Origin: a candidate division WOR-3 bacterium
GTDB taxonomy: Bacteria; Hydrothermota; Tepidihabitantia; SM23-42
DNA length: 64,000 bases
Direction of reading: 5' to 3'
Assembly: GCA_020349965.1 (NCBI GenBank)
Contig: CP070705.1
Span: 759,569-823,568, forward strand
In this document: piece after piece, positions 677 to 24,727 of the stretch
Layout: each line of letters opens with the position of its first letter
Numbering within the stretch: the stretch's first letter is position 1
Notes under the pieces: generated by a model
Database searches by the model: none
The model's input: only the letters and a program-made list of their open reading frames with translations
Told to the model about the DNA's origin: nothing
Program-made: the position numbers and the translations under genes

Positions 677-1552
677 ATGAAAAAAGAGTGTGTCTTTATT
701 GACGTCTTCACCGATACCGCCTTTGCGGGAAACCAGCTTGCCGTCTTCCCAGATGGCAGTGGTCTTACCGTTGATCAGATGCAGAGACTTGCCAACGAAA
801 TCAACTATTCGGAGACAACATTCATTTTTGAAAGCGAACGATCTGAGTCAGATTTCGATATACGGATCTTCACGCCGGGCAGTGAACTCCCATTTGCCGG
901 TCATCCAACACTCGGTACTGCCTACGCGATAATGGATCTCTTTGACCTCGGGAAAAGCGGGAGTGATTCGCTGACATTGGGAACGAAGGTCGGTGCGATC
1001 TCGCTGCAGAAGCAGGGACGTATCCTCTGGATGACTCAGAACCAACCCGAATTTTTCGATCAGCACACAGATATGGAAAGAATCGCTGGGCTTGTTGACC
1101 TTTCGCCCGATGATATCTCGACTGATCTGCCGGTGGAAGAGGTGTCGACCGGCAACCGAGTGTTGATCATTCCGGTGAAGGCATTGAATGCCATAGGCCG
1201 TGCCAGGGGCAATGCGACAAATTTAAGCGGATACCTTGCAAAGGATGTCGTGGGCCCTTATCTCTTTTCCCTCGAAACCACGCGTGCAGACACGGCAGTG
1301 CATACTCGTTTCTTTGCGCCCCACCTGGGCATTATGGAAGACCCGGCAACGGGGTCTGCTGCCGGTCCACTGGTCGGTTATTTTCTTAAGCACAATGTTT
1401 TTGGTACAAGATTCGAGGTCGAGAACGAACAGGGTGTAGAGATGGGGCGACGCTCAAGGATACTGATGCGTGGTGTACTCGAAGGTGCTGAGTACACGAT
1501 TCAGATCGGTGGCGAGTGTGCCTACGCCGGCAGAGGCGAATTCGAGATCTAA
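677..1552 (+). CDS. PhzF-family (phenazine biosynthesis-like) isomerase
   Basis: The ORF spans 617..1552. The N-terminus 'MKKECVFIDVFTDTAFAGNQLAVF' and overall length are typical of PhzF/YddE-family proteins. I prefer the internal ATG at 677 because it follows a purine-rich stretch. Confidence 0.7.
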   Translation: MKKECVFIDVFTDTAFAGNQLAVFPDGSGLTVDQMQRLANEINYSETTFIFESERSESDFDIRIFTPGSELPFAGHPTLGTAYAIMDLFDLGKSGSDSLTLGTKVGAISLQKQGRILWMTQNQPEFFDQHTDMERIAGLVDLSPDDISTDLPVEEVSTGNRVLIIPVKALNAIGRARGNATNLSGYLAKDVVGPYLFSLETTRADTAVHTRFFAPHLGIMEDPATGSAAGPLVGYFLKHNVFGTRFEVENEQGVEMGRRSRILMRGVLEGAEYTIQIGGECAYAGRGEFEI

Positions 1553-1643
1553 AACACAACGATGATTCAATAGTCACGGCGTATGTGCCTTGCCGTGTGA
1601 TCCTGCGATGATGATTTATTCTAATTTGTAAGGGATTCCGGGT

Positions 1644-3053
1644 CTACCAGACGCCGGTCTTCAGGTATTCGTGCATCGACCGCGCGGCAATGCGGGCATC
1701 GCCCATGGCGAGTATTACGGTGGCGCCACCCCGGACTACGTCTCCACCTGCCCAACAGCCTTTCTTAGAGGTTTTGTTCGTTTTGGCGTCGATCTCAATG
1801 TTGCCCCACTTGCCGATCTTCAGGTCAGGCGTCGTCTGAGGAATGAGCGGGTTCGGACTCTGGCCGATTGCACATACTACAGTATCGACCGCAGTAATGA
1901 AGTTAGATCCTTCGATCGGGACAGGACGGCGCCGCCCTGACGCATCAGGTTCACCCAATTTCATGCGGATGCACTCCATTTCTTTCACCCAGCTGTATTC
2001 ATCCCCGACATATTGCAAGGGAAGCGTGAGGTACTCGAAGACGATACCTTCTTCTTCGGCGTGATGAATCTCTTCGGCGCGGGCGGGCATTTCCTTGAGG
2101 GACCTGCGGTAGACGATCCGCACTTCATCGGCACCGAGGCGAAGTGCCGTGCGTGCACAATCCATGGCCACATTACCACCGCCAATGACGGCGACCCTCT
2201 TACCCCGAACGATCGGCGTATCATACTGGGGGAAGAGGTATGCCTTCATCAAGTTTGCTCTCGTGAGGTACTCGTTTGCCGAATAGACGCCATTGAGGTT
2301 CTCACCGGGAATGTTCATGAACCATGGCAGACCAGCACCGGTACCGATGTATACTGCATCGAACTCTTGGAGAAGTTGGTCGATCGTAGCAGTCTTGCCG
2401 ACGACAAAATCAAGGTAGAGCTTGACCCCGCACTTGAGCAGATAGTCGACCTCGCGTTCGATGATCGCTTTAGGTAACCTGAATTCAGGAATGCCGTACA
2501 CGAGTACGCCCCCTGGTTTGTGCAGCGCCTCGAAGATCTTTATCCCGTGGCCGAGCATTACCAGGTCTCCGGCAACGGTCAATCCACCCGGACCGGCACC
2601 GATGACAGCAACCTTCTTGCCGGTCGGCGGCGGTATTTGGGGGATCGATGCTTCACCCGCGGAGGCTTCGCGGTCGGCAGCGAAGCGTTCAAGACGGCCG
2701 ATCGCTACCGGTTCATACTTTTTCGCCAATACGCACAATTTCTCGCACTGGTCTTCTTGGGGGCAGACCCGGCCGCATACGGCGGGCAGGACATTCCTTT
2801 CCTTCAGGCGTTTTATGGCACCTTCGAAGTCTCCCTCGGCAATGAATTTTATGAAGCCGGGTATGTCGATCTCGACCGGGCAGCCAGGTATGCAGGTAGG
2901 CTTCTTGCACTGCAAGCAGCGTTTTGCTTCGGCAATGGCTTCCTGATCATTGTAACCGTATGGTACTTCATCATAACCTTTTCTCCGCTCCTTGGCGGGC
3001 CGTTCGCGCATCGGCGTCTTCTTCGGTACGATCTTGTTAGCCATATTTCTCAC
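1644..3053 (-). CDS. nfnB: NfnB / GltD-like subunit of an NADH-dependent ferredoxin:NADP oxidoreductase (glutamate synthase small-chain family)
   Basis: 469 aa. The N-terminus has 2×[4Fe-4S] Cys clusters (CLQCKKPTC…CPVE; CGRVCPQEDQCEKLC). Two Rossmann motifs are present (VAVIGAGPGG, VAVIGGGNVAMDCA). It overlaps the upstream nfnA-like gene by 17 nt. Confidence 0.8.
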   Translation of the reverse strand: MRNMANKIVPKKTPMRERPAKERRKGYDEVPYGYNDQEAIAEAKRCLQCKKPTCIPGCPVEIDIPGFIKFIAEGDFEGAIKRLKERNVLPAVCGRVCPQEDQCEKLCVLAKKYEPVAIGRLERFAADREASAGEASIPQIPPPTGKKVAVIGAGPGGLTVAGDLVMLGHGIKIFEALHKPGGVLVYGIPEFRLPKAIIEREVDYLLKCGVKLYLDFVVGKTATIDQLLQEFDAVYIGTGAGLPWFMNIPGENLNGVYSANEYLTRANLMKAYLFPQYDTPIVRGKRVAVIGGGNVAMDCARTALRLGADEVRIVYRRSLKEMPARAEEIHHAEEEGIVFEYLTLPLQYVGDEYSWVKEMECIRMKLGEPDASGRRRPVPIEGSNFITAVDTVVCAIGQSPNPLIPQTTPDLKIGKWGNIEIDAKTNKTSKKGCWAGGDVVRGGATVILAMGDARIAARSMHEYLKTGVW

Positions 3054-3861
3054 ACTCGTAGAAACTCAATGAATAGACCTCTTCTTTCAAATAGATCTTG
3101 CGGCGGGACAAAAGATTCTGCCAGTCAACCTGGTGGCCGTCGAATTCGGGGCCGTCGACGCAGCCGAATTTGGTTTCGCCGTTTACGATGACCCGACAGA
3201 CACCGCACATGCCGGTGGCGTCGACCATGATCGGATTGAGTCCCACCAAGGTTCTTATGCCGAACGGGCGGGTCGTCTCGGAACAGAGATATGTAAGGTA
3301 GGTACATCCCTGAACATAGACGAGATCGATCCGTTCTCTTTTCAGATAATCATTGAGGAAATCATTAGCGTGTCCTTTGATGCCCCTTGTTCCATCGCGC
3401 GTTATCTCAAAGAACTCGTCACTATGCTCTTTCAGTCTATCCTGCCAGTAGAGCATGAATTCGCTTCGCGCTTCGATCGCCGTGATCACTCTGTTGCCGT
3501 TCTTCTTGAATGCACGTATCACGGGGAGGATCGCACCGATGCCGTAGCATCCACCGATGCACAGGACATTCTTGTCTTTCGTCAGTTCAGTGGGCTTGCC
3601 CAGAGGGCCGACAAGTGTCGCGAGTTCGTCACCTGCGTTCAGGGCTGCCAGCTTTCTGGTTGAGGTACCGATCTCGAGAAAAATGATGCTGATGCTCGTA
3701 TCGTTCCAGTCAACGAGATTGAGCGGGATCCGTTCACCATATTCATCGGCGCGGACAACGACGAATTCACCGGCTTGTGCATTCCTGTGGATAGCGTCGG
3801 ATTCGATGACCAGAAGGTGTATGTTGGGTACTATCTTCTCTCTCTTCAGGATTTTGTACAT
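3037..3861 (-). CDS. nfnA: NfnA / PyrK-like FAD and [2Fe-2S] electron-transfer subunit (sulfide dehydrogenase alpha-like)
   Basis: 274 aa. It has a ferredoxin-reductase-like fold and a C-terminal Cys cluster (GMCGVCRV…CVDGPEF) typical of PyrK/NfnA. It is translationally coupled to nfnB. Confidence 0.8.
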   Translation of the reverse strand: MYKILKREKIVPNIHLLVIESDAIHRNAQAGEFVVVRADEYGERIPLNLVDWNDTSISIIFLEIGTSTRKLAALNAGDELATLVGPLGKPTELTKDKNVLCIGGCYGIGAILPVIRAFKKNGNRVITAIEARSEFMLYWQDRLKEHSDEFFEITRDGTRGIKGHANDFLNDYLKRERIDLVYVQGCTYLTYLCSETTRPFGIRTLVGLNPIMVDATGMCGVCRVIVNGETKFGCVDGPEFDGHQVDWQNLLSRRKIYLKEEVYSLSFYECEKYG

Positions 3862-6023
3862 TCGAGCCTCACCGGTTCGTTCTTCAATCTGCGTGCTGAA
3901 GGGTGGTCGAATACGAGAACAGTACTTTGCGGTAGGTACGAAGAGATCTTTACCGGCATGATGAACGAAGTGCGGCGCCCGATGATGGTTGCCCGCGCTC
4001 CGTCACGCAGCCCGAACTTCTTCGCCGTATTTTCGTTGATCCACGCGGAGCGATCATGGCGCAGTCGGTCGAATCCTCTCAATATGGCCGAGAGCGTTTT
4101 GCCGCGGTATGTGTAGGCGTTCTCCCTGACGATGAGACGTAGTGGATATGCCCGGTTCGTTTTTCTTAGGGTCGCGCGCTTCGTCACTATTTTTCTCTTT
4201 CCTGACTTCTTGGTCAGTCTCAAGTCCATGGCGCGGGCGATGGCTTCGACGATCATGTCATCCGGCATCGCTCTACCGATTGGTTCAATGGCGCGGCGTA
4301 CCCTTTTCGTTCTGTCCTCGATGTCAACCATCTGGCCGTCCGTTTCGGCGAACGTGGCTGCCGGAAGGAAGACGTCAAAGTCAAAATCGGGCAGGAAGCA
4401 ATCTTGTACAATGACCGTACCGTACTTTCTCTCCAACTTCGGCGCAACACCGACAAGGTAGAGGCAGTCGATATTCTTGCTCGTCAACATTTCTTCATGT
4501 GTACAGTGAAATCCCATCCTGGATATCCTGAGGGCGTTGGGTTGACTGAAAAGGGGGAATGTCTTGCACGATTTGCTTGACTTTTCGATCACAGAATTCG
4601 ACGGATCGTATAGCACGTACACTTTCTTGCCTTTGACCAGTCGCTGTGCGAGCTCGATTTCGGCAGCGGAAATGCCCGATTCCTTGGGAAAGCGTCCTGG
4701 GCCGCAGAGTACGTCGACGATCTTTTGCTCGGTGCCGGGGTTTGGTTTCAAGACGGTGTCGGCAAAGCGGTCTGACGGGCGTGCGAAGGCGTCGATGACG
4801 ATGAAGGTCGCCCTGTCTTTCATTTTCCTGCGTAGTGTGAGGAGGAGGACCGAGTAATCGCCGACCATGTCGGTGTTCACGATGATCATCGCAGCCTTGC
4901 CTTTGATCTCACTGAGGGCGAGCGGCCTTGGGGGAACATTCGACAGGAAAGGCATGGCCAACTTCGCGCTCAAAGATCCACCGAGCGCATAGATATTTTC
5001 GGCTGCCTCGACTGTCAACTGAGGTGAAAACAGAAATCCGGTTCGGTTTCGGTGCTCCCGCAATTTTTGCGAAACGCATTCTAGTGCTTCATCCCACTCC
5101 ACTTCGATCACCCCGTCACGTTTCTTCATCAACGGCTTTGTTATGCGTCTGGGATGGTTCACAATGGGCGCGATGGCGAAACGGCCACGTGCACAAATCT
5201 GATCTTTGTGCGGCGTGGAACAGGTTATCTTCCCGTTCGAAACATTTAGATCGACCGCGCATCCTATGCTGCAAAGCATACAGGTCGTCTTGACCGTCCT
5301 TTCCGGAGGGCCGTCATACCGGCTGAATCGATCCCTGAGTGCGCCGGTGGGGCAGATGTCGACACAGGCACCGCAGAATTGACAGCCCGATTCGAGATGG
5401 GGTAGATCGAATGCGGTGCCGACGAGCGTCTTTGGTCCGCGATGATGGAATTCGAGTGTGTGGGCGTGCCTGATTTCGTGGCATGCGCGAATGCACCTGC
5501 CGCACAGTACGCACAGGTTGTAATCGCGATCGAAGAATGGGTCGTCCCTCTGCGTCTCGAGATTTCGGTAACGGAATTCGAAATGGAGATCTTTTATGTC
5601 CATGTCCCTGACCAGATCCTGCAGTTCGCATTTGTTATTCTGTGGGCACGACTTGCAGCCAAATGTGACGGCAGACTTCTTTATGCACTCCTGGAAATTG
5701 TCGCAGTCTTTCTCGCGTTCGCATATCAGGCAGGCACTCGGATGTTCGGAAAGGATGAGCTGGAGTGTCGATCTCCTTAGTTTTCGCAGGCGCGGAGTAT
5801 CGGTCTTGATTACCATTCCGTCTTCGGCGGTCAGCGTGCAGGCGGTAAGGGGCGTCTGCTTTCCCTTCATGTCAACGATGCAGAGACGGCAACCGCCGTA
5901 CGGCGACAGATCCTTGTGGTGGCAGAGCGTGGGGATGCGGATGCCCGATCTCTGGGCGACCTGGAGCACTGTTTCACCGTATCGTGCTGTGCATTTTTTT
6001 CCGTTGATCGTGATCCTCATCAT
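3846..6023 (-). CDS. NuoG-like Fe-S subunit with a truncated molybdopterin-oxidoreductase domain; no [FeFe]-hydrogenase H-cluster motifs seen
   Basis: 725 aa. The N-terminus has a [2Fe-2S] ferredoxin (CHHKDLSPYGGCRLC) and a His-ligated 4Fe-4S motif (HPSACLICEREKDC). Two ferredoxin-type 4Fe-4S motifs follow, then a MopB Fe4S4 domain (CMLCSIGCAVD…ICARGRF) and a short MopB-like C-terminus. Confidence 0.8.
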   Translation of the reverse strand: MMRITINGKKCTARYGETVLQVAQRSGIRIPTLCHHKDLSPYGGCRLCIVDMKGKQTPLTACTLTAEDGMVIKTDTPRLRKLRRSTLQLILSEHPSACLICEREKDCDNFQECIKKSAVTFGCKSCPQNNKCELQDLVRDMDIKDLHFEFRYRNLETQRDDPFFDRDYNLCVLCGRCIRACHEIRHAHTLEFHHRGPKTLVGTAFDLPHLESGCQFCGACVDICPTGALRDRFSRYDGPPERTVKTTCMLCSIGCAVDLNVSNGKITCSTPHKDQICARGRFAIAPIVNHPRRITKPLMKKRDGVIEVEWDEALECVSQKLREHRNRTGFLFSPQLTVEAAENIYALGGSLSAKLAMPFLSNVPPRPLALSEIKGKAAMIIVNTDMVGDYSVLLLTLRRKMKDRATFIVIDAFARPSDRFADTVLKPNPGTEQKIVDVLCGPGRFPKESGISAAEIELAQRLVKGKKVYVLYDPSNSVIEKSSKSCKTFPLFSQPNALRISRMGFHCTHEEMLTSKNIDCLYLVGVAPKLERKYGTVIVQDCFLPDFDFDVFLPAATFAETDGQMVDIEDRTKRVRRAIEPIGRAMPDDMIVEAIARAMDLRLTKKSGKRKIVTKRATLRKTNRAYPLRLIVRENAYTYRGKTLSAILRGFDRLRHDRSAWINENTAKKFGLRDGARATIIGRRTSFIMPVKISSYLPQSTVLVFDHPSARRLKNEPVRLECTKS

Positions 6024-7852
6024 TTCACCGCCGGGGATACTTTCTTCACCGCGTTGAATTTAGGCGGACAGACCGTGATGCAGATGCCACACTTCGTGCA
6101 CTTTTGTTGGTCAATGGTATGTATTTTTTTCGGTTCGCCGCTGATAGCGTCACTGGGGCAATTCTTGGCGCAGACCGTACAGCCGCCACACAGTTTGTCG
6201 TCGATGACGTAGGAGATTAGATCTTTGCAGACAAGGGCGGGGCAGCGTTTTTCTTTGATGTGCGCTTCGTATTCGTCACGAAAGTATCTGAGGGTCGTCA
6301 GCACGGGATGGGGTGCGGTCTGGCCCAGTCCGCACAGTGATGAGAGTTTCACGTTCTCAGCGATGCTCTCGAGAAATTGGATGTCGCCTTCGCGGCCTTT
6401 ACCTTTTGTCTTTCGATCGAGCGTGTAGACCATGTGCTTCGTGCCCATACGACAGGGTGGGCATTTACCGCACGATTCCTCTTGCGTGAAATTAAGGAAA
6501 TATCGCGCAACATCAACCATGCACGTATCCTCGTCCATTACGATCATGCCGCCCGAGCCCATCATCGAGCCGGCCTGGGTCAGGCTTTCGTAATCGATCG
6601 GCAGGTCGAGCATGTTTTTCGGGATGCACCCGCCCGATGGACCGCCGGTTTGGACTGCCTTGAATTCTTTTCCCTGCGGGATCCCTCCGCCTATGTCGTA
6701 GATGATCTCGCGCATGGTGATTCCCATCGGTACTTCGACGAGTCCGGTATTATTGATCTTGCCGACGAGTGAGAATATCTTCGTACCCTTGCTCGTTTTC
6801 GTGCCGATCGAAGAGAACCATTTCGCGCCACGGCTGATGATCATCGGCACATTTGCCCAGGTCTCCACGTTGTTGATGTTCGTCGGTTTGCCCCAGAGCC
6901 CTTTTTCTGAAGGGTAGGGCGGTCTCTGTCTCGGTCGACCGACCTTGCCTTCGATCGATGCGATCAGCGCCGTTTCCTCGCCGCACACAAAGGCACCGGC
7001 TCCTTGGACGACTTCAATGTCGAAGTCAAAATTTGTTCCCAGGATATCCTTACCGAGCAAGCCGTATTCTTCGGCCTGCGAAAGAGCGATCTTCAAACGC
7101 TTGACGGCGAGGGGATACTCGCTGCGTACATAGACAAATCCTTTGTGCACACTGATCGCCCGGGCTCCGATCGTCATGCCTTCGATCACCGAATGAGGAT
7201 CGGCTTCCAGCACGCTGCGGTCCATGAATGCGCCCGGGTCACCTTCGTCACCGTTGCAGATTATGTACTTGATACGCCCAGGTTCGCGACGGCACAGATC
7301 CCATTTCATACCGGTCGGAAAACCGGCACCGCCTCTTCCGCGCAAACCTGATGCCTTTACTTCCTTGATTATTCGTTCCGGTGTCATTCTGGTGAGGGCT
7401 ATCTCCAGCGCCTGATACCCGTTGAAACCGATGTATTCATCGATGTTTTCCGGATCGAGTCGCCCGCGATTGCGCAATATGATCAAGCGTTGATGCTTGA
7501 AAAATTCTATGTCCATCATTTTGGGTACGGGTGCTTCTCTTGGTGAGGGTATGTACATCAATTCCTTCACGGGCCGGCCTTTGAGGAGATGTTCTTCGAC
7601 GAGATGGGGTATGTCCTTCTTCTTCATCCGCTGATAGAAGATGCCGTCGGGTTGCACGATGACGATCGGCCCCCGTTCACAGAACCCCTGGCAGCCGGTT
7701 GTAACGACACCGATTTCGTCGCTCAGTTTCTTCCTGGCGATCTCCTTCTGGAGTTCTTCCTTGATGTCGAAAGCGTGGTTGGCAACACAACCAGTCCCGG
7801 CGCAGACCAGTAGATGGAGGCGGAATTCTTCAGTCTTTCTTCTTCTTTTCAT
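6020..7852 (-). CDS. NuoF/HydB-like NADH-binding flavoprotein with an N-terminal thioredoxin-like [2Fe-2S] domain and a C-terminal 2×[4Fe-4S] ferredoxin domain
   Basis: 610 aa. It carries the NuoF FMN/NADH motifs (GRGGAGFPTGMKW, ICNGDEGDPGAF, ESCGKCPPCR). The N-terminus reads 'LLVCAGTGC…GCQGFC'. The C-terminus reads 'CGGCTVCAKNCP…CTKCGICITVCP'. Confidence 0.85.
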   Translation of the reverse strand: MKRRRKTEEFRLHLLVCAGTGCVANHAFDIKEELQKEIARKKLSDEIGVVTTGCQGFCERGPIVIVQPDGIFYQRMKKKDIPHLVEEHLLKGRPVKELMYIPSPREAPVPKMMDIEFFKHQRLIILRNRGRLDPENIDEYIGFNGYQALEIALTRMTPERIIKEVKASGLRGRGGAGFPTGMKWDLCRREPGRIKYIICNGDEGDPGAFMDRSVLEADPHSVIEGMTIGARAISVHKGFVYVRSEYPLAVKRLKIALSQAEEYGLLGKDILGTNFDFDIEVVQGAGAFVCGEETALIASIEGKVGRPRQRPPYPSEKGLWGKPTNINNVETWANVPMIISRGAKWFSSIGTKTSKGTKIFSLVGKINNTGLVEVPMGITMREIIYDIGGGIPQGKEFKAVQTGGPSGGCIPKNMLDLPIDYESLTQAGSMMGSGGMIVMDEDTCMVDVARYFLNFTQEESCGKCPPCRMGTKHMVYTLDRKTKGKGREGDIQFLESIAENVKLSSLCGLGQTAPHPVLTTLRYFRDEYEAHIKEKRCPALVCKDLISYVIDDKLCGGCTVCAKNCPSDAISGEPKKIHTIDQQKCTKCGICITVCPPKFNAVKKVSPAVK

Positions 7853-8294
7853 ACTCTTTCAGGAGCCGGTCGACCTTGTTGACCGTAGTCTGACCGTGGT
7901 ACTCGTCATCGACGACGACGATCGGTGCGAGGGCGCACGCACCGAGGCAGTTAACGGTTTTCAATGTGAATTGATTGTCTTCGGTCGTGCCGCCGGTTTC
8001 GATCCGCAAGCGATCTTCGAGCCGGGACAGAACAGAGGGTGCGCCCCGGACATGGCATGCCGTGCCCATGCAGACCGTGACCAGATGTTCACCCCGCGGT
8101 TTTAGACTGAATGCGGAATAGAACGTGGCGATACTGTAAATACCACTCAACGGCATTCCCAGTCGTTGACCTGCATATTCGAGGACGTCCTTCGGAAGGT
8201 AGTTGTAAATGGACTGAATATCGTTGAGGATCTGTATAATCCTTTCTTTTCGGTAACCGTGGTGTTTGATGATGCGATCGATTTTTTTCATCAA
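7830..8294 (-). CDS. NuoE/HoxE-like [2Fe-2S] thioredoxin-fold subunit
   Basis: 154 aa with the motifs CMGTACHVRG…CLGACALAP. It overlaps the nuoF-like start and is the first gene of the operon. Confidence 0.85.
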   Translation of the reverse strand: MMKKIDRIIKHHGYRKERIIQILNDIQSIYNYLPKDVLEYAGQRLGMPLSGIYSIATFYSAFSLKPRGEHLVTVCMGTACHVRGAPSVLSRLEDRLRIETGGTTEDNQFTLKTVNCLGACALAPIVVVDDEYHGQTTVNKVDRLLKEYEKKKKD

Positions 8295-8424
8295 GCGCTA
8301 TTATACATACCATTGCAAAAAAATCAAGGGTTTGATGAGGTAATTTTTTGATCCTCAAGTACCTAATTCGTGGTCCGCCCTGTGATGTGTCTAATATACT
8401 ACTTTGTGTTGTGAGTCAACCTAC

Positions 8425-9750
8425 CTATTCGATGAGCACGACCTTTTTGGTCTTGGGCACGCCGTCGATATTTACCTGAATGAAATAGGTGCCGGCAGGT
8501 ACAGGTCTGTTTTGTCCGTCCAATCCATCCCAATTTATCGTATGAGTACCTGCGGTCTGTTCGGGTTCGATCATCGTCCTTATGAGTCGGCCTGAGTTAT
8601 CGTAAATATTCATGCAGAGTTCACCCGGTCTTTGCATAAAGGTTTCTATCTGGCACGGTAGTACCAGCGGGTTGGGTGCTACGCCTATTGGTGAATCTTC
8701 GCCCATTGGTTTTGGAATGAGTTCGGCAATACCCACGGGGTCAGTGTATAACGCGAATGTGGTGGCGAGTGCAACACCGGCATCACCTCCGAAAATGTAG
8801 ACGAGACCATTCTCTGGGCTGTAGCTGCCGCACGAGCCTCGTCTCGGAGCGACCGTGCCTGAAGGAACAACCTGTTGCCAGCTGATATCCGTGAGATTCA
8901 GTGCATAGACATCGCTGAGCAGTATAATGTAATAGGGACTACCTTCGTAACCAAACCCCACTATCAAAGCATTTTGAACCTCATCGTAGGCACAGAATGC
9001 TTGTCCTCTGCACTGGGGTGTGGGGCCGCTTGGATAGAGTTGCTCCCAGTTCTCATTTCCATACGTTAGATCGAGTGCCCAGACATCGCTCATCATGGGC
9101 GTTGCACAGCCGCTGAATACGATGATGCGGTGCTGGGTTTGATCGTATACTGAAGCACATGCGCTTCTCGGTATTGGAAGTGGTCCCGAAGGCCCGAGTT
9201 GTGTCCAGGCCATCGTTGTGAGATCGAGTTCCCAGGTTTCGTTGAGGCGTATGCCACCGCCAATGTCGCCGCCAAAGAATATCAATCTGTGGCTGACAGG
9301 GTCATAGATGCCAGTAACCTCTGTACGCGGACAAGGCGGTGTACCAGATGGCGTGAGTTGTGTCCAGTATTCGGCGCCGAGTGTAAGGTCAAGCCTCCAT
9401 ATATCATTGTAGAAAGTATATGCACTTCTTCCGCCGAACATGAACATCTGGTTAGTGGTAGGGTCGAGGATCAGTGATGGGTTCCTGCGGGGCGGTGGCG
9501 TCGGTGAGGTAACCTCTACTTGCTGCCAACTTTCGAGGGACGGGTCGAATGCCCAGATTTCATCATAACAATCACCGGAAAGATTGTAATCCTGACCACC
9601 GTACATGATTATTCGATGGTTGACCGTATCCGAAATCATACTTGCCATGGAGCGTTGTGCAGGATAGCAGTCCACAACGCAGAGGCTGCCTCCATATAAT
9701 GCGTTTATCGCAATAGCACATACTAATACTACAACAGGATATCTATGCAT
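8425..9750 (-). CDS. Secreted Kelch-repeat protein with a T9SS-type C-terminal sorting domain
   Basis: It has a signal-peptide-like N-terminus and repeated Kelch motifs (…GG…W.D…W). The C-terminal ~80 aa (NIYDNSGRLIRT…GTYFIQV…KKVVLIE) fits the Por secretion tail / FlgD-Ig-like pattern. Confidence 0.7.
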   Translation of the reverse strand: MHRYPVVVLVCAIAINALYGGSLCVVDCYPAQRSMASMISDTVNHRIIMYGGQDYNLSGDCYDEIWAFDPSLESWQQVEVTSPTPPPRRNPSLILDPTTNQMFMFGGRSAYTFYNDIWRLDLTLGAEYWTQLTPSGTPPCPRTEVTGIYDPVSHRLIFFGGDIGGGIRLNETWELDLTTMAWTQLGPSGPLPIPRSACASVYDQTQHRIIVFSGCATPMMSDVWALDLTYGNENWEQLYPSGPTPQCRGQAFCAYDEVQNALIVGFGYEGSPYYIILLSDVYALNLTDISWQQVVPSGTVAPRRGSCGSYSPENGLVYIFGGDAGVALATTFALYTDPVGIAELIPKPMGEDSPIGVAPNPLVLPCQIETFMQRPGELCMNIYDNSGRLIRTMIEPEQTAGTHTINWDGLDGQNRPVPAGTYFIQVNIDGVPKTKKVVLIE

Positions 9751-9890: not shown

Positions 9891-12011
9891 ATGGTAAGTA
9901 GATGTATTTACGCAGCTTCTGTCATGTTCTTATTCTCTTTTGGCCAGAGTGAGTGGGTAGAGACAACGCAGGGTGATTTTGCCGACGGTCAATTCGAGCG
10001 CAACATCTATGCATCTCATGCTGCAGGTGGCGCAGTGGAATTCGCCCCGCGGTTCGATCTCAACAATGACGGATACATCGATCTGTTCACTGCCGACCGT
10101 TCCGGGCCTTATGTCCGCATATATTGGGGAAGCGCAGGCGGATATTCGGCCGGCAATGTGCAGTTATTCAACAGCAGCGGCGGAGCAAACTGCGATGCGG
10201 CAGACCTCAATTGCGACGGTTACCCTGAATTCTTGGTCGCTCACTATCTCGAGAAGATTTCGATATACTGGGGTACGGCCGGTGGACCCGATCCAATGAA
10301 TTATACTGATCTGCCGATGACGGCGTGGAACCGGAAAGGCATATTCTCAGCCGACTTCGACAAAGATGGGTATCTCGACATTGCGACAACGCAGGGCATT
10401 GACCCCGACCACGGAGCGGTTTACTGGGGAAGTGACACCGGATACTCGGTCAGTGATCGTATCGACCTGCCTTGTACGTTTGGAAATCATAACATTGAGG
10501 TCGCGGATTTGAACCTGGATAATTGGCTGGATATCCTCTTTGTCGAGTACGCGGGTGGTTATGCAGGGCAGATCTCGATCTACTGGGGTAGCGTTAGTGG
10601 ATTCATTCCTTCCGCGGTCACGATCCTTCCCGGGCTGATAGGGAACAGCGGGGTCTCGGTCGCAGATCTGAACGGAGATGGGTATCTGGATCTCATCGGT
10701 ACCGGCTGGTACGATCCTAGGTCGTATATCTACTGGGGCACTGCAGGCGGATACTCCGTTGCCAATATGCAGGTATTGAGTCCGGGATACTGCTATGGTG
10801 GAAGTTCGGTCGCCGATTTGGACGGCGATTCCTATCTCGACATTGTCTATCACCATGGTGGGTATGGCGTCGATTACCAAAAGGTATACTGGGGCAGCGT
10901 CTCGGGTTACTCGAACGGCAACTACAGCGATCTCGGGATTCCCCTTGAAACATCGGGGGGACTTGTTGCCGATTTTAACGGCGACGGGCACCTGGACGTC
11001 TTCTGCAACACGAGAACTCCTGGATGGGAGAGCCACGTATTTTATGGGCCCTCTCATACGACGAGCCAGACGTTGCCGGTCTATCAGGATCATCACGCGA
11101 TGTTCCGTGAAATCGGCAATGTCTATGACCGTGAGTACTACGAAGACTATTTGTCTTCGGTGTTCGATGCCGGTGCGCTTACTGATTGGGGTACGGTCGA
11201 ATGGGATGCTGCGACACCCGGTCAATCGTCGGTTCTACTGTGGATCCGCACCGGCAGCACGGCTGTGCCTGATTCTACTTGGTCGAATTGGGAAACGGTA
11301 AGCAACGGCGGCCACATACCCGATTTCCTAAATGCTCAGTACCTGCAATATAGAGCCCGTTTATGTTATGACAATCCGTGTTTTCTGCCGGCGCTGAGAG
11401 AGGTTTCAATCGGTTATGGAACATCGACCGCAATCCTGGCTTCAGTGGCGATCAAACCCAGGACGATCAACCTGGGCAGTCACGGCATATTCACTGCATT
11501 CATAACCCTGCCGACGGGATATTGTCACACGGATATCGATCGCTCGACTGTCATGTGTGAAGGGGCAAATGCAGTTTGGGGTCATGCCACGCCCCCTTTC
11601 TATACGGCAAAGTTCAATGTGCAGGATCTTGTTGGGGTCGTTGCCGGTTCTTCGGTCACGTTCACGGTCAGTGGTGAGCTGAGCGACGGGACGGAGTTTT
11701 TAGGGTATGATACGGTCAGGGTCGTTGACCACGTGGATGGTGAGCAGGTCGAGTGCAGACCTAATCCCGTTTTGACCGAAGCCACCATCTCATTTTCGAA
11801 TATCGCCGATGAAAAAGTGGCGGTGAAGATATATGATGTCAAAGGGGCGCTGGTCCGTTCATTTGATGGTGTCGAGTGCATGGGCGGTTATGGCGGCATT
11901 ATGTGGGACAGACATGACAATAGGGGACGAAGAATGCCGTCAGGCATCTATCTTTTCATTATAGAGGGCAAGAGTACGCGCCTCGCTGAAAAGATAATTG
12001 TCATGGACTGA
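9891..12011 (+). CDS. Secreted FG-GAP/VCBS-repeat protein with a T9SS-type C-terminal sorting domain
   Basis: It shows repeated 'ADLNGDGYLD / YWG' integrin-alpha-like FG-GAP motifs. The C-terminal domain (PNPVLTEATISF…VKIYDVKGALV…GIYLFI) is typical of T9SS cargo. A GGGAGGAG ribosome-binding site precedes the ATG. Confidence 0.7.
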   Translation: MVSRCIYAASVMFLFSFGQSEWVETTQGDFADGQFERNIYASHAAGGAVEFAPRFDLNNDGYIDLFTADRSGPYVRIYWGSAGGYSAGNVQLFNSSGGANCDAADLNCDGYPEFLVAHYLEKISIYWGTAGGPDPMNYTDLPMTAWNRKGIFSADFDKDGYLDIATTQGIDPDHGAVYWGSDTGYSVSDRIDLPCTFGNHNIEVADLNLDNWLDILFVEYAGGYAGQISIYWGSVSGFIPSAVTILPGLIGNSGVSVADLNGDGYLDLIGTGWYDPRSYIYWGTAGGYSVANMQVLSPGYCYGGSSVADLDGDSYLDIVYHHGGYGVDYQKVYWGSVSGYSNGNYSDLGIPLETSGGLVADFNGDGHLDVFCNTRTPGWESHVFYGPSHTTSQTLPVYQDHHAMFREIGNVYDREYYEDYLSSVFDAGALTDWGTVEWDAATPGQSSVLLWIRTGSTAVPDSTWSNWETVSNGGHIPDFLNAQYLQYRARLCYDNPCFLPALREVSIGYGTSTAILASVAIKPRTINLGSHGIFTAFITLPTGYCHTDIDRSTVMCEGANAVWGHATPPFYTAKFNVQDLVGVVAGSSVTFTVSGELSDGTEFLGYDTVRVVDHVDGEQVECRPNPVLTEATISFSNIADEKVAVKIYDVKGALVRSFDGVECMGGYGGIMWDRHDNRGRRMPSGIYLFIIEGKSTRLAEKIIVMD

Positions 12012-16628: not shown

Positions 16629-17912
16629 TTACTGGATGAGTTCTAACTTATCGGCCGGCAGGTACTTGTACAATGTGGGCTGGCTTCTTTCGTCGATGGC
16701 GTTTGTCCAAACGAGGACATACTCATTCGTTCCCCGAATGTCGACGAATATGAATTGTTGCCCATTCGCATATTGCCAATGCTCGTAGGGTCTGGATTCC
16801 TGTTGTTGTAGAGGTAGTGGATGTTCGATTTCCTCCGGTTCGCCATACTGCACGTAGATTCGCCCGCGATCGGTTCTATGGCCGGGCGTATCTCCAATGT
16901 AGAAGTGTTCATCCGCATATTCGAATCTTGCAGCGATCGTTGGATAGTCATGAATACGCCAGAATCTGACGAGAAACGCCTCTTTCCCCTCCTTGGGGAG
17001 ATCCTTGAATTTTCTGTAATCTCCGGGAGCGAGAAAATATTCGATCTCGCCGTAAAACGGCATGCCCTGGTAGCTTACTTCCTGGCGCTGCACTCTGGAG
17101 ATGCTGAAAGGCACACCTTTTTGTGCTAGTGTATTCGCTTCCTTATCTTCCACGGCAACAGTCAACTCATATTCACCCGAAGGTATGCTCTGTATATCTA
17201 TGCCACAGTTGACTGCTTGGGCCGGATAGATCTTATCGACCGTCCTCGATACCCGGCGTAGGGTTCGGCCTTCGGGGTCTGTAATTGTATAAACGGCAGT
17301 GAGAGTGTCGTGGCCCGGAACGATATCATATAGTTCGTAGTAAAAGAAGAGATTTCTGAACCGGTCGTCGAATGAACGTGAAGGGTGCGGTACGACTCTC
17401 AAGTCACCTTTTCTAAGATTTTCGCCGACAGTGTCGACCGTTATGTCGCTTGCGAGACAGATGTCGCTCATGGCATAATCTTCACTGCGGATTTCGAGAG
17501 TGGATTCGGATACTCCGATTTTCTCGCCGGATAATATTTCGACGCGATACTTGAATCTGCCTTCGTTTAGATAGGTCCCGAATTGTACGAGAAAGGTGGC
17601 TTGTTCCTTTGCCGCAGTGGAAAACGATGGAATGGTGAATTGTCGGTACAGGGTGTCGACCAGTGAATCGGGCCGCTCGGTGTCGACGATCCGGAATGGT
17701 ATGATAGCGTTTGCGTAGATGATATCCTCGGTCGACTGATAGTGGAGTTCCTGGTAGGGAATCTCGCAGTTGAACTCCGCATAGTAGACATCAGCGGATG
17801 TGATTGTTTGGGCAACCGTGTCTTCTATCTCTAAACTGGTCTTGTAGACGACCGGATCGGTAAAGAATCTTATTGTGCTACCTGATGCAATCAATAAAAG
17901 TAATGTTATCAT
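16629..17912 (-). CDS. GWxTD-domain protein
   Basis: 427 aa. The C-terminus 'GHRTDRGRIYVQYGEPEEIE…YEHWQY…FIFVD' matches the GWxTD domain pattern, and the N-terminus is signal-peptide-like. Confidence 0.7.
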   Translation of the reverse strand: MITLLLLIASGSTIRFFTDPVVYKTSLEIEDTVAQTITSADVYYAEFNCEIPYQELHYQSTEDIIYANAIIPFRIVDTERPDSLVDTLYRQFTIPSFSTAAKEQATFLVQFGTYLNEGRFKYRVEILSGEKIGVSESTLEIRSEDYAMSDICLASDITVDTVGENLRKGDLRVVPHPSRSFDDRFRNLFFYYELYDIVPGHDTLTAVYTITDPEGRTLRRVSRTVDKIYPAQAVNCGIDIQSIPSGEYELTVAVEDKEANTLAQKGVPFSISRVQRQEVSYQGMPFYGEIEYFLAPGDYRKFKDLPKEGKEAFLVRFWRIHDYPTIAARFEYADEHFYIGDTPGHRTDRGRIYVQYGEPEEIEHPLPLQQQESRPYEHWQYANGQQFIFVDIRGTNEYVLVWTNAIDERSQPTLYKYLPADKLELIQ

Positions 17913-21884: not shown

Positions 21885-24080
21885 CTATGATTCAGTTTCT
21901 TCTTTGGCCTCGGTCGTTATGCGCTGGAGAACATCTTGGGCAGTGGCCGCGATAAAGCGATTCCTGCTGTTTGCGGACTTCTGGAGTGCTTGCATTGCCT
22001 TTGGCGTGGCTATCTGTGCAAGAGCCGTTAGCGCAGCTGCTTTCGTTGGCAAGAGCACAGCGCGTTTGAGCAAGGCACGTTCTCTGACGATGGATGTCAG
22101 AGCATTGATGACCGATTCTTCTTTACTCTTGGCGAGGGCCTCTATTACGGCAGCCCTGAATTGTTCATCTGTTTCATTCGGGATCGCCTTCTGCCTCTTC
22201 AGCCATTGCAGTACCTGGGGGAGCTTGTGTTTGAAATCGTCTGGTGCCAGGCATTTCATTGCTTCCAGCGTCACGTATGGATACTTGCTGTTCAAAGCCT
22301 TCTTTAGGTATCCGACCGATTTCTCGCCGCCGATTTTGCTGAGACTTGAAACGACTTCGAGCTGTATTTGCGGTCTGTCTTCGTCTATCAGGGCGCCTAT
22401 ATTGTCGATCGTTGCCTCCGCCTTCAACTCGCCGAGAATGAAAACTCCGTTGCGACGGGCGTACCACTCATCTGCCTGGAGCAGCTTGAGTATTTCGGGG
22501 ATGGCCTTGTCGCTCATTCGTTTCAAGGTGTCGAGGATCTTCATGCGGACCGCGTAGTTGTCAATTTCGCGGAGGGCTTGAACTAAAAGAGGCGCAGAGG
22601 TGTCGGCGAGGGCGATCAAAGCTTCTCTCGCTTCGGCATAGGTACCTGCGGCCCACAAGGAAGATAGGAGTTCCGGCATATACGTGGGGTCACGCGTCTC
22701 TCCAATGGCTTTTATCACTACCCGTTTTCGCTCCAAGAATATCGTATCTTTACGCATTAGATACTTGGCGAATTTTTTTGCGATGAACTCCATCACTTCG
22801 GTATTGCCGCGGTCGCGTGCTTTAATGTAGAGAATTTTCAACCCTCCGATTGCTTTGGCGAATGCATTCAGGTCCTGTTCTGCTTCGGCCATGGCATCGA
22901 GGCGGTTTGCCATCAGGCAGACGAGGTCGTAATTCTCGGCTTCAAAAAGCCGGTCTGCGAACGCGACTAACTGATCGATCGTGTCGATTCGCTCTTCGGT
23001 CGAGTTGCTGCGCAGTGCAGGAAAATGGCTTTTCATTTCCATTTCGAGGTTCTTGATGTTGTATTTCATCGCGGCCTCAGGTCCCCTTGTTGCTTTAACA
23101 CGTTTCATCAGGCGATCGAGGAAGTCGCTCGTGTAGGTTTCCGGTGCACGAGTGCCAAGGGTCGTCAGGATGTCTGGCAATTTGCTGCTTGTCACGTTCT
23201 TCAGAATGTCTACTATGTCATTCTCGGCGTTAGGTGATCGTTTCTTAGCGATCATCATAACGATGTCAACGATGTCATCATCTTCCATCGTAGGCACCAA
23301 CTTTCTGAACATTTCGGCAAGTTTCGCGTTCTCGCTGCGGTATCTTATAATATTCTTCTTCACAGAAGGCGACAGAATGGCCAGTATTCTGGAGAAAACG
23401 AGCGAGTACTCGTTCCATCTTTCCTCGCCATAGCGGTCCATGACCATCAGCGCAAGTTTCTCCAATCCGGTAAGGATTTTCTCGGTCTGTATTTCTGTAG
23501 TATCTTCACTCGTGACGCCGAGGACACCGAGAAAGCTGCCCAACTCCTTGAGCCTTTCCTCTTCGGTCTTGGGTTCCTGGGCCGTTATCATCGATTCGAG
23601 GAAGTTATCCCAATCCAATTCCCTGAATTCCGAGTCAGAGGTGACGACGCCCACGCGATAAATATTCACCTTGATGCCGGTGATATTGCGGGTCCGCATC
23701 AGGGTCGCGATGTCTCCGTAGTCATCGATCTCCGCAGGTTGGAGGGCCATCACCGAAAAGAACTCATTGAGTTCCCATTCACTGACTTCTGTGTTGAATG
23801 TGATGCTATTCACTCCCACTTGGTTGAACCGGTCGACGAGGAATTTAACGATCGAAAGCTTCTGGGAATCGAAGCGTTCTTCATCGATCTTCAGGACGCT
23901 CTCGATCACAACGATACTCACGACACGCTTTTCGATACGGAGTTCTTCGAAGACCTTATGCACGCGCTCGACGGTCAATTTGAGTGAGGGATGACCCTCT
24001 GGGTAGGTGCGCGAAAGGTATACACCCATTCGCAGGAGTTTGAGCAGATCATCATACAGTTTCTTGACGTTTTCTTCCAT
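21885..24080 (-). CDS. Large HEAT/PBS-lyase-repeat protein of unknown function
   Basis: 731 aa. The C-terminal half has repeated HEAT-like units (…AIPEILKLLQADEWYARRNGVFILGEL…VRERALL…). No recognisable catalytic or cNMP-binding motif was seen. Its start abuts the stop of the small cyclase gene. Confidence 0.6.
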   Translation of the reverse strand: MEENVKKLYDDLLKLLRMGVYLSRTYPEGHPSLKLTVERVHKVFEELRIEKRVVSIVVIESVLKIDEERFDSQKLSIVKFLVDRFNQVGVNSITFNTEVSEWELNEFFSVMALQPAEIDDYGDIATLMRTRNITGIKVNIYRVGVVTSDSEFRELDWDNFLESMITAQEPKTEEERLKELGSFLGVLGVTSEDTTEIQTEKILTGLEKLALMVMDRYGEERWNEYSLVFSRILAILSPSVKKNIIRYRSENAKLAEMFRKLVPTMEDDDIVDIVMMIAKKRSPNAENDIVDILKNVTSSKLPDILTTLGTRAPETYTSDFLDRLMKRVKATRGPEAAMKYNIKNLEMEMKSHFPALRSNSTEERIDTIDQLVAFADRLFEAENYDLVCLMANRLDAMAEAEQDLNAFAKAIGGLKILYIKARDRGNTEVMEFIAKKFAKYLMRKDTIFLERKRVVIKAIGETRDPTYMPELLSSLWAAGTYAEAREALIALADTSAPLLVQALREIDNYAVRMKILDTLKRMSDKAIPEILKLLQADEWYARRNGVFILGELKAEATIDNIGALIDEDRPQIQLEVVSSLSKIGGEKSVGYLKKALNSKYPYVTLEAMKCLAPDDFKHKLPQVLQWLKRQKAIPNETDEQFRAAVIEALAKSKEESVINALTSIVRERALLKRAVLLPTKAAALTALAQIATPKAMQALQKSANSRNRFIAATAQDVLQRITTEAKEETES

Positions 24081-24727
24081 CAGCCCTTCAGTTTCAGTTT
24101 ATACTCGTATGCCTTTACGCCAAAAGACTCTTCGACGAATTCGCCAATTTCTCTGTATGCGAAGAAACCCTTGGTTACCTTGTGGAGATTCTCGCCAACG
24201 AGTATGGTATTGCTCACCGCGTTCTTCTGTAGTATTTGACTCTTGCGAAAGCCTTTGGTGAGTATCAATGCATTTCTCAAATCAGGATGCAGGTTGAAAA
24301 TTGACGCAGGTTCGATCTCGGCGCCAACCTTGAGGCCGAGCGGACTTTTTACACTGCCTTTCTTATTGAAATCGTATAGCCGGTTGAACATCTCCTCAGC
24401 CGTGAGTATTGCCATGTGCGGTGCAAATCCTGTTTCGAGGTCGAGGCCGAAGATACTTACGATCTCATCACCAACTACTTGATATATGGTTCCTTTGTTC
24501 TTGGCGATTATCTTCGCGAACATATCGAAGATATCGTTCAATACGGCCATGACGTCCTCAGCTATCATGGTTTCGCTCATTCTAGTGAAGCCAGATAGAT
24601 CGACGCGGAGAAATGTTAACTTCAGATCTTCGAAAGGTGACGTGATATCATCATGGAGTGGCGCGCCACACCACGGACAGAAATTGAAGGTCTGGGTGAT
24701 CTCTTTATTACAGTTGCCGCAGATCAT
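24080..24727 (-). CDS. Small class III nucleotidyl cyclase with an N-terminal zinc ribbon
   Basis: 215 aa. The zinc ribbon reads 'CGNCNKEI…CPWCG'. Cyclase motifs are present: 'FLRVDLSGFT' supplies metal-Asp 1 and 'VVGDEIVSIFG' supplies metal-Asp 2. The C2-type Asn/Arg box is altered to 'GENLHKVTK'. Confidence 0.7.
   Translation of the reverse strand: MICGNCNKEITQTFNFCPWCGAPLHDDITSPFEDLKLTFLRVDLSGFTRMSETMIAEDVMAVLNDIFDMFAKIIAKNKGTIYQVVGDEIVSIFGLDLETGFAPHMAILTAEEMFNRLYDFNKKGSVKSPLGLKVGAEIEPASIFNLHPDLRNALILTKGFRKSQILQKNAVSNTILVGENLHKVTKGFFAYREIGEFVEESFGVKAYEYKLKLKG

Follow-up and report, generated by a model that had tools for sequence, protein, structure and literature searches.

Does a bacterial operon that places the genes of a complete NfnSL transhydrogenase directly behind those of a complete Bfu-type bifurcating core encode one enzyme or two? 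We address this question for a locus of a candidate division WOR-3 bacterium, located on the minus strand at 1644-8294 of a window of 64,000 nucleotides (positions 759,569 to 823,568 of CP070705.1, a 2.30-Mb contig of a metagenome-assembled genome, MAG). The locus comprises five overlapping open reading frames (ORFs) in the order bfuC (NuoE-like), bfuB (HydB-type), bfuA (NuoG/FdsA-like), nfnS, and nfnL, with overlaps of 23, 4, 16, and 17 nt from bfuC to nfnL. An initial annotation had described a five-gene operon at these coordinates that joins a NuoEFG-like module to NfnAB, and its gene content and domain assignments are borne out by ORF calls, Pfam, and NCBIfam. Our preferred, if far from certain, reading is that the five products assemble into a single complex, NfnSL being the NADP(H) module of a Type-3-like Bfu enzyme.

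In the Bfu scheme, BfuBC is an invariant core that bifurcates electrons between NAD(H) and ferredoxin, and BfuA feeds it with electrons from a third substrate; where BfuA is empty, the site for that substrate lies on extra subunits, as in Types 2 and 3 (Schut 2022). The family is defined by a BfuB with a NuoF flavin mononucleotide (FMN) domain, an SLBB domain, a NuoF [4Fe-4S] domain, and a ferredoxin-type 4Fe-4S domain, together with an adjacent BfuC (IPR002023) and a BfuA with [2Fe-2S] and 4Fe-4S ferredoxin-type domains (Schut 2022).

Using Pfam, matches in the PDB, and Cys/His conservation, we identify bfuB (6020-7852, minus strand; 610 amino acids) as the gene for a HydB-type FMN/NAD(H) subunit. 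Its product carries an N-terminal 2Fe-2S_thioredx domain, Complex1_51K, SLBB, NADH_4Fe-4S, and a C-terminal Fer4 dicluster, and its PF01512, PF10531, PF10589, and PF14697/PF12838 matches are the Pfam counterparts of the Bfu-defining IPR011538, IPR019554, IPR019575, and IPR017896. BfuB aligns end to end with the NiFe-HydB of Acetomicrobium mobile (7t2r_B; 868 bits) and with HydB (7q4v_B; 862 bits), as against 742-758 bits for the B subunits of Nfn-Bfu/Stn and about 400 bits for NuoF and FdsB. Cluster sites are an N-terminal [2Fe-2S], an N3-type [4Fe-4S], H531/C537/C542, and a C-terminal pair of [4Fe-4S]. The extra Cys ligands of the Bfu family, whose mapping the initial annotation had called for, are all in place: C17/C22/C54/C58, H531/C537/C542, and both CxxCxxCxxxC motifs align with 7t2r_B and 7q4v_B, and across 50 loci compared these extra-cluster ligands are kept, save C17 and C22, which are kept at 60%. 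The Bfu-specific sites (N-terminal [2Fe-2S], B2, and C-terminal B3/B4) are thus present in BfuB, while they are missing from the non-bifurcating NuoF and FdsB. The preceding gene, bfuC (7830-8294, minus strand; 154 amino acids; PF01257, 170.7 bits), encodes a NuoE/HydC-like [2Fe-2S] subunit with a 2Fe-2S_thioredx domain that is matched by the HoxE and NuoE models of NCBIfam, and its C75, C80, C116, and C120 are 100% kept over the 50 loci. As the family definition asks of the two partner subunits, PF01257 is found in BfuC and PF13510, PF12838, and PF22117 in BfuA, and the genes overlap. Judged by its domains, BfuB is a full Bfu-type subunit with every Bfu-specific domain.

The third gene, bfuA (3846-6023, minus strand), encodes a NuoG/FdsA-like iron-sulfur subunit of 725 amino acids with a reduced MopB-like domain, as seen with Pfam, PDB matches, an AlphaFold2 model, and Foldseek. 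Pfam finds Fer2_4, NADH-G_4Fe-4S_3, a Fer4 pair, and Molybdop_Fe4S4, and the matches to Molybdopterin and Molydop_binding are partial; in the PDB the sequence matches 6tg9_A, 7t2r_A, 9bov_A, and 8oh5_C. Its canonical sites are one [2Fe-2S] and four [4Fe-4S] clusters. The ligands of the [2Fe-2S] cluster (C34, C45, C48, and C62), of two ferredoxin-type [4Fe-4S] clusters (C171/174/177/181 and C214/217/220/224), and of the MopB-type [4Fe-4S] cluster A5 (C248, C251, C255, and C277) are invariant, as are those of the His-ligated [4Fe-4S] cluster A3 (H94, C98, C101, and C107 or C132). An AlphaFold2 model built with 119 homologues (predicted local distance difference test, pLDDT, 84; predicted TM-score, pTM, 0.84) superposes over its whole length in Foldseek on the alpha subunit of FdsA-type formate dehydrogenase (FDH) with TMq 0.77-0.80, on Nqo3 with 0.74, and on NiFe-HydA with 0.62; the last is the structural match of highest identity (22-24%).

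We searched BfuA explicitly for catalytic sites. There is no Fe_hyd_lg_C Pfam match in BfuA, and regular expressions for the H-cluster motifs TSCCPxW, MPCxxKxxE, and ExMACxxGCxxG return nothing in it even when relaxed. As for a Mo or W ligand, not one Cys is conserved at residues 283-519 among 119 homologues, and the bfuA ORF contains no in-frame TGA or stop codon that would point to selenocysteine (Sec). The MopB domain of one distant relative (L035) is more complete, and there the residues SFSP align with the catalytic motif VCHSP of FdsA. The initial annotation had claimed that the NuoG-like protein lacks the H-cluster motifs and has only a truncated molybdopterin domain, and had named H-cluster or catalytic Sec/Cys-Mo motifs as contrary to its proposal; these searches agree with it: to judge from its sequence, BfuA is a subunit without a catalytic site. 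It follows that BfuABC alone would encode no site for a third substrate.

BfuA also has a conserved Cys-rich loop. Its residues 94-135 (5619-5744, minus strand) hold the His-ligated cluster motif together with an insertion of about 25 residues, SEH94PSAC98LIC101EREKDC107DNFQEC113IKKSAVTFGC123KSC126PQNNKC132ELQ. In FdsA, Nqo3, and NiFe-HydA the A3 motif has the canonical form H-x3-C-x2-C-x5-C-ELQ; in BfuA this motif is interrupted by the addition of a second C-x2-C-x5-C, and FdsA and NiFe-HydA are without an insertion of this type. H94 and seven Cys (C98, C101, C107, C113, C123, C126, and C132) are invariant in the 118 full-length homologues (42-100% identity), out of 120 listed, that span the region. 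In the set of 50 loci, which spans many phyla, conservation is 100% for H94 and for every one of these Cys but C113, which occurs in 40% and is restricted to the WOR-3-like group. An attempted link between loss of C113 and an N-terminal extension of NfnL was dropped as inconsistent across groups. The insertion point is also the point at which StnA/NfnA hold a whole GltD-like domain of about 450 residues, with BfuA 3-113 mapping to StnA 5-120 and BfuA 112-339 to StnA 554-791. In the solved Nfn-Bfu structures electrons pass along FAD-A7-A6-A3-A2-A1 to the bifurcating core, where FAD is flavin adenine dinucleotide (PMC11829005). We infer that the insertion probably binds an extra cluster that prolongs the wire from A3 toward a partner. 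The motif extends beyond the close relatives of this operon: among the representatives from 50% clustering, 1385 proteins match BfuA at E <= 1e-30, and of the 149 best representatives at 50% identity (P0121-P0269; 460-1080 amino acids) 139 show the double motif. It marks a large, apparently uncharacterised subfamily of NuoG-like proteins.

The last two genes encode both subunits of an NfnSL enzyme. The product of nfnS (3037-3861, minus strand; 274 amino acids) is an NfnA/NfnS-type FAD and [2Fe-2S] subunit: it scores 327 bits with PRK06222 (cutoff 220), 251 bits against the NfnI-S of Pyrococcus furiosus (5jca_S), and 209 bits against the NfnA of Thermotoga maritima (4ylf_A), matches DHODB_Fe-S_bind in Pfam, and conserves the D/C219/C222/C234 motif of an Asp/Cys3 [2Fe-2S] cluster. 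The nfnL product (1644-3053, minus strand; 469 amino acids) is an NfnB/NfnL-type NADP(H), FAD, and 2x[4Fe-4S] subunit with 596 bits to TIGR01316 (cutoff 472); it scores 599 bits against T. maritima NfnB (4ylf_B), 525 against P. furiosus NfnL, and 300-345 against the GltD-like domains of Stn/NfnA. Its probable start is ATG 3044, which would give 466 amino acids as in its homologues. The flavin-facing R192 and R325 (R201 and R333 in P. furiosus) and E100, the Glu ligand of the proximal cluster, are kept in 50 of 50 loci; the N-terminus is long, with its first Cys at 46, and nfnS lies upstream and overlaps. All the features published for NfnB in PMC12221290 (a long N-terminus, two Arg, and nfnA upstream) are therefore found in NfnL, which by these residues keeps what has been tied to a bifurcating FAD. 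The claim of a Bfu core plus a complete NfnAB is upheld by the 868-bit match of BfuB to 7t2r_B and by these two above-cutoff models. In a neighbour-joining tree rooted on the GltD domain fused to BfuB in some loci (see below), with two free-standing references and no bootstrap, the 50 Bfu-linked NfnL form one clade apart from those of T. maritima and P. furiosus.

Both nucleotide-binding loops of NfnS have a clade-specific Cys. The first, residues 102-108 (IGGCYGI; 3538-3558, minus strand), contains C105, and the second, residues 184-189 (QGCTYL; 3295-3312, minus strand), contains C186. All 50 Bfu-linked NfnS read GGC[YF]G and GCT[YF] here, with both Cys at 100%. By comparison, the solved subunits of T. 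maritima and P. furiosus have GGGVG and GP[AT]I, and P. furiosus NfnII-S has GAYTG and GPV; all three solved NfnS-type subunits are without a loop Cys. In the window protein C101 and C193 lie close to C105 and C186, making four Cys in all. These residues could bind a metal, or they could modify NAD(H) binding or take its place.

We used comparative genomics to ask how widely the five genes stay together. Homologues of BfuA at 44-62% identity occur in the same five-gene arrangement within wholly different flanking genes. In a scan of one genome per species, the best 80 of 568 relatives were analysed by ORF calling and BLASTP with the five window proteins. These 80 loci come from WOR-3, Stahlbacteria, TA06, Fischerbacteria, Edwardsbacteria, Aminicenantes, Gemmatimonadota, Chloroflexota, Planctomycetota, and Coatesbacteria, and further MAGs among them are labelled delta-proteobacterial, actinomycete, Clostridiales, and Bathyarchaeia; the unit spans more than ten phyla, mostly of uncultured anaerobes. 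The subunit composition, which the initial annotation had called unusual, is so relative to the literature we searched; in genomes it is not. The gene bfuB lies directly 5' of bfuA in all 64 loci with room for it, and in L077 a bfuC-bfuB pair sits downstream of nfnL. Directly 3' of bfuA, nfnS is found in 69 of the 70 loci with enough downstream sequence (67 in the automatic count, to which L028 and L078, both ORF-calling artefacts, were added), and nfnL follows nfnS in 58 of 59. Because it recurs in 69 of 70 informative loci of other genomes, this gene order is far above chance. The junction between bfuA and nfnS is the tightest of the four, with a median gap of -1 nt, overlap in 59% of cases, and a gap of 50 nt or less in 90% (n = 73).

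The sequences of the subunits also vary together. Over 50 loci, the correlations of pairwise distances, which are inflated by shared phylogeny and are supportive only, are 0.94 for BfuA-NfnS, 0.91 for BfuB-BfuC, 0.90 for NfnS-NfnL, 0.88 for BfuA-NfnL, and 0.82 for BfuA-BfuB. The partial correlation r(BfuA,NfnS|BfuB) is 0.81, and within the WOR-3-like group BfuA-NfnS (0.90) and BfuA-NfnL (0.87) stand against 0.62 for BfuA-BfuB. This pattern implies that BfuA travels with NfnSL and BfuB with BfuC. For instance, relative to the window proteins, L011, L013, L017, L030, and L034 have BfuB at only 59-66% and BfuC at only 52-58% identity, and their BfuA, NfnS, and NfnL match the window proteins just as closely as do those of loci with BfuB at 75-79% identity. 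The identities suggest that the BfuBC pair has been exchanged independently of the BfuA-NfnSL trio in some lineages.

BfuB itself varies at its C-terminus in a few loci. In L070 (3853-7008), L029 (1-1188), and L004 (1-127) a GltD-like FAD/NADPH domain takes the place of its C-terminal ferredoxin domain, giving a protein of about 1050 amino acids. The L070 fusion lies directly upstream of bfuA-nfnS-nfnL, placing two NADPH-type modules in that cluster, and in its GltD domain Tyr and Asp stand where NfnL has R325 and E100. The similar NuoF-GltD fusion of L004 lies beside HdrA-like and MvhD/FlpD proteins, about 5.7 kb upstream of the five-gene cluster.

The layout of the locus is that of one transcription unit. 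The best sigma-70-like site in 1400-8600, and the sole one better than weak, is TTGATT-16-TATAAT at 8300-8327 on the minus strand, directly 5' of bfuC (10/12 matches, by consensus only). Its -10 box ends 6-9 nt before the start of bfuC, at TTG 8294 or, more probably, ATG 8291; if the site is real, the bfuC transcript would be leaderless or nearly so, with a very short or absent 5' untranslated region. A second candidate, TTGACT-15-TATATT, lies at about 8393-8419. As for an internal promoter that would split off nfnSL, the operon contains just three weak 9/12 sigma-70-like matches, and the total of such sites in the region, these three included, is not above that in shuffled sequence. An internal terminator that would set nfnSL apart was likewise looked for and rejected; 3' of nfnL there is a weak hairpin, CACGGC-11 nt-GCCGTG (1575-1597), which the scan left unscored. 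No Rex operator was found 5' of bfuC, and a single match with 3 mismatches elsewhere in the window is below the number expected by chance. On neither side is the neighbouring gene related: the upstream one, for a Kelch/FlgD-Ig protein, ends 130 nt before the operon, and downstream there is a convergent PhzF-family gene. The five genes are one operon, and separate transcription of nfnAB, the outcome that the initial annotation had named as contrary to its proposal, finds no promoter signal in the sequence beyond the level of shuffles.

We favour NfnSL as the third-substrate module because BfuA is empty with A3 and A5 kept, and because nfnS and nfnL are the sole genes conserved along with it. 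In the complex that we favour, BfuB and BfuC would form an FMN/iron-sulfur bifurcating core for NAD(H) and ferredoxin, and BfuA would be a non-catalytic wire of one [2Fe-2S] and four [4Fe-4S] clusters with a probable extra cluster beside A3. NfnS and NfnL would take the place that HydSL has in the bifurcating NiFe-hydrogenase and would bring NADP(H) as the third substrate. Electrons would move between A3, the extra cluster, and NfnSL, and the enzyme would interconvert NADPH, NADH, and reduced ferredoxin. Consistent with such a complex are the overlaps between the genes with the best promoter-like site 5' of bfuC, the end-to-end match of BfuB to bifurcating HydB proteins, the lack of a catalytic site in BfuA, the order held across phyla amid unrelated flanks, the tight bfuA-nfnS junction, the covariation, the insertion in the A3 loop, the Cys signature of NfnS, and the single clade of NfnL.

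Several observations weigh against this reading. NfnL keeps all the features of a self-sufficient NfnB and NfnS its [2Fe-2S] ligands, so the pair could act alone, and a third-substrate module that shares the three substrates of the core lacks an obvious thermodynamic rationale. One locus, on a Chloroflexota MAG (L052; JBMOLU010000002.1, 4620-9292), has bfuCBA with the insertion and no nfnS or nfnL within 7 kb downstream; it is the only true exception to the gene order, and the next genes, on the opposite strand, encode an S-adenosylmethionine (SAM) hydroxide adenosyltransferase and a CTP-transferase-family protein. In the AlphaFold2 models built with 25 and with 119 aligned sequences, pLDDT is below 56 at BfuA 95-131, which gives no confident geometry for the insertion. 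The phylogenetic component of the distance correlations and the sparse, bootstrap-free NfnL tree count on the same side, and the five-protein complex as such is read from genes. A related body of evidence would fit two enzymes made from one transcript, a self-sufficient NfnSL and a BfuABC with its partner elsewhere, co-regulated for the balance of NADH, NADPH, and ferredoxin. We regard this as possible and as the less probable explanation. The published features of a bifurcating NfnB, the retained cluster ligands of NfnS, and L052 all suit it, as does the seemingly independent swapping of BfuBC in the WOR-3-like group, by which the modules would be separable; moreover, nfnAB is known from operons with separate, related enzymes, including bifurcating hydrogenases (Liang 2019). 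However, two enzymes would leave BfuABC without an encoded third-substrate site, BfuA being empty, and no other candidate partner gene is conserved beside the cluster, because the flanks differ in every lineage. They would also leave unexplained an order fixed in 69 of 70 loci with its tightest, overlapping boundary between bfuA and nfnS, the closer tracking of NfnS than of BfuB by BfuA, and NfnS loops altered in the linked copies, unlike those of the solved free-standing enzymes.

Far less room is left for an ordinary FDH, hydrogenase, or NADH-input module of complex I that merely adjoins nfnAB, which we consider extremely unlikely. The best sequence and fold matches of BfuA do include FdsA-type FDH alpha subunits and NuoG/Nqo3, and the NuoE, NuoF, and NuoG models of NCBIfam match below or near their cutoffs, but the NuoF and NuoG equivalog models stay below cutoff, except the NuoF model NF010120, and BfuB has N- and C-terminal cluster domains that are missing in NuoF and FdsB. 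We rejected the hydrogenase and FDH versions for the want of an H-cluster motif and of a Mo-ligand Cys or Sec and for the reduced MopB domain. The complex I version was rejected on account of the extra domains of BfuB and the absence of nuo genes from the window scan and the related loci; by Pfam, 20 of the larger window ORFs (>= 200 amino acids) outside the operon include no nuoA-N or hydrogenase genes and are housekeeping genes only. Quite improbable, too, is a single complex whose NfnL flavin does not bifurcate, with NfnSL serving only as the entry for NADP(H), NfnS as an adaptor without NAD(H), and the standard Nfn reaction as the outcome. The homologous FAD of Stn/NfnABC does not bifurcate (Kumar 2023), the NfnS loops differ in every linked copy (50 of 50), with GGC[YF]G in place of GGGVG and GC in place of GP, and no other subunit co-varies with BfuA as well as NfnS does; yet the two Arg and the Glu ligand of NfnL are 100% kept, unlike those of the GltD domain fused to BfuB in L070. 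StnC also keeps the first Arg (Kumar 2023), so that sequence alone does not settle the behaviour of the flavin.

If the five proteins do form one complex, as we favour, two docking topologies are conceivable for BfuA, at the ferredoxin site of NfnL or at the altered nucleotide site of NfnS. The contact of BfuA would be with either the distal [4Fe-4S] of NfnL or the altered NfnS site, and the stoichiometry would depend on which of the two it is. A rather doubtful extension is that two bifurcating centres work in series, the bifurcating FAD of NfnL and the FMN/iron-sulfur flavobicluster of BfuBC, joined by BfuA and the extra cluster. As a tandem device of this kind, the complex would act as a gear-shifted transhydrogenase of non-canonical stoichiometry. 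By our own arithmetic from published half-reactions, a bifurcating NfnL flavin would yield about 3 NADH and 2 reduced ferredoxin per 4 NADPH with BfuA at the ferredoxin site of NfnL, and about 1 NADH and 6 reduced ferredoxin per 4 NADPH with BfuA at the nucleotide site of NfnS. With a non-bifurcating flavin, as in Stn, either dock would give the standard 1:2:2 (NADH : ferredoxin : NADPH).

The remainder of the window offers further observations. Beside the operon, 8425-9750 (minus strand) encodes a large predicted surface or secreted protein with Kelch repeats and FlgD-Ig, and 9891-12011 (plus strand) encodes another with FG-GAP repeats, FlgD-Ig, and Por_Secre_tail (type IX secretion system sorting); similar FG-GAP and FlgD-Ig/Por_Secre_tail proteins occur near the cluster in L001 and L004. 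Genes for an aconitase-family protein, citrate synthase, and an isocitrate/isopropylmalate dehydrogenase stand in a row at 29641-34124 (plus strand) and constitute the oxidative branch of the tricarboxylic acid cycle to 2-oxoglutarate; the dehydrogenase would be a second source of NADPH if it is NADP-dependent. The genes at 21885-29052 encode an adenylate/guanylate cyclase and AAA_16 protein (1058 amino acids), a 215-amino-acid ORF, a HEAT-repeat protein (731 amino acids), and RlmN. The same set adjoins the five-gene cluster in the WOR-3 genome CP070834 (L003), demonstrating synteny conserved at a distance. At 39374-41437 (minus strand) a 687-amino-acid protein has GreA/GreB N- and C-terminal domains in its last ~150 residues only, and Pfam leaves its first ~530 residues unmatched at E <= 1e-8. 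At the same threshold no Pfam family is found for the ORFs at 16629-17912 (427 amino acids) and 41524-42873 (449 amino acids), both on the minus strand.

The combination of BfuABC and NfnSL in one operon is not described in the open-access literature that we searched, including Schut 2022 apart from its Supplementary Table 1, Kumar 2023, Liang 2019, Huang 2025, two 2025 cryo-EM papers, and the Hydrogenedentota Bfu paper. Among the third-substrate modules of the Bfu family catalogued in 2022, none in the accessible text is built from NfnSL (Schut 2022). The papers that we consulted regard NfnSL and Nfn-Bfu (Stn) as alternatives, unrelated answers to one reaction, and by their account organisms 'typically contain either' one or the other. 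The operon unites both kinds of transhydrogenase, a complete NfnSL behind a complete Bfu core, consistently across phyla. A single complex would, if true, be a new third-substrate module for the Bfu family and a natural unfused intermediate for the insertion of an NfnL-like domain into BfuA, with the Cys-rich loop marking the point, and it would raise the question of whether two bifurcating sites in series change the ferredoxin cost of NADPH. Current annotations name these genes NuoE, NuoF, NuoG, '(2Fe-2S)-binding protein', 'molybdopterin-dependent oxidoreductase', and 'glutamate synthase', and metabolic reconstructions of WOR-3, Aminicenantes, and others will consequently mis-assign them.

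How does the operon compare with known systems? In the SfrAB enzyme of Geobacter sulfurreducens a NuoG/FdhA-like subunit that lacks Mo is paired with a GltD-like NADPH subunit; SfrAB is not known to have a HydBC-type core or NfnS. One homologue (P0048) carries the source annotation 'NADPH-Fe(3+) oxidoreductase subunit alpha'. A proposed precedent for two bifurcating modules is Bam-Bfu (BamBCDEFGHI) of Geobacter and Desulfosarcina, in which Bfu stands in series with the flavin-based bifurcating HdrA (Schut 2022). Its second module and substrates are HdrA and benzoyl-CoA, in contrast to NfnSL and NADP(H) here, and its BfuA is of Type 2, without the A3 and A5 that the BfuA of the operon has.

The closest counterparts of the last two genes are the free-standing NfnSL/NfnAB of T. 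maritima (4ylf) and P. furiosus (NfnI, 5jca), with which NfnL and NfnS align end to end. Common to both are the Asp/Cys3 [2Fe-2S] site, both [4Fe-4S] sites with the Glu ligand, both Arg, the long N-terminus, and the order nfnS then nfnL with overlap. The operon differs in that nfnSL lies downstream of bfuCBA and both NfnS loops contain Cys; according to Kumar 2023, 'there is no HydBC homologue in Nfn'.

With the Nfn-Bfu/StnABC enzymes (Type 1; Sporomusa ovata 8oh5, Caldicellulosiruptor saccharolyticus 9bov, and Thermococcus sibiricus 9n5u) the operon shares the HydBC-type core, a NuoG-like subunit without a catalytic metal site, a GltD/NfnL-type NADP(H)-FAD module, and the predicted substrates NADPH, NAD, and ferredoxin. 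In those enzymes the NADPH module joins at the region of the His-ligated A3 cluster. The likeness to Stn proposed in the initial annotation stands for the core; the retention of a NuoE-like subunit, named there as a difference, falls away, since StnABC has one: StnAB is the HydBC-type core and StnC combines GltD with a NuoG-like part (Kumar 2023). As far as the sequences go, the real differences are a separate canonical NfnL in place of an inserted domain, and the presence of NfnS. The operon encodes its NADPH module as a polypeptide of its own, which belongs to the true NfnL clade and keeps the bifurcation-linked residues, and where Type 1 has a GltD domain fused in the NuoG-like subunit, three subunits, and no NfnS, BfuA has only its insertion of ~25 residues. 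NfnS is present in the operon, while 'there is no NfnA homologue in Stn' according to Kumar 2023. The operon could represent an unfused evolutionary precursor of Stn/Nfn-Bfu.

The nearest solved relative, by BfuB and BfuA sequence, is not Stn but the NiFe-HydABCSL of A. mobile (Type 3; 7t2r and 7t30), the best solved match for BfuB and the structural match of highest identity for BfuA. That enzyme, too, is made of five subunits; its NuoG-like BfuA is empty and relays electrons via A3 to two extra subunits (Schut 2022). In the operon the A3 and A5 ligands are invariant and two extra genes follow bfuA, whose products may bind BfuA and bring the third-substrate site. The extra subunits of HydABCSL are the small and large subunits of a NiFe-hydrogenase, to which NfnS and NfnL are unrelated, and HydA is without the Cys-rich insertion, unlike BfuA. 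Given that 7t2r is the closest relative, the better analogy for the predicted enzyme is one in which NfnSL stands in the place of HydSL.

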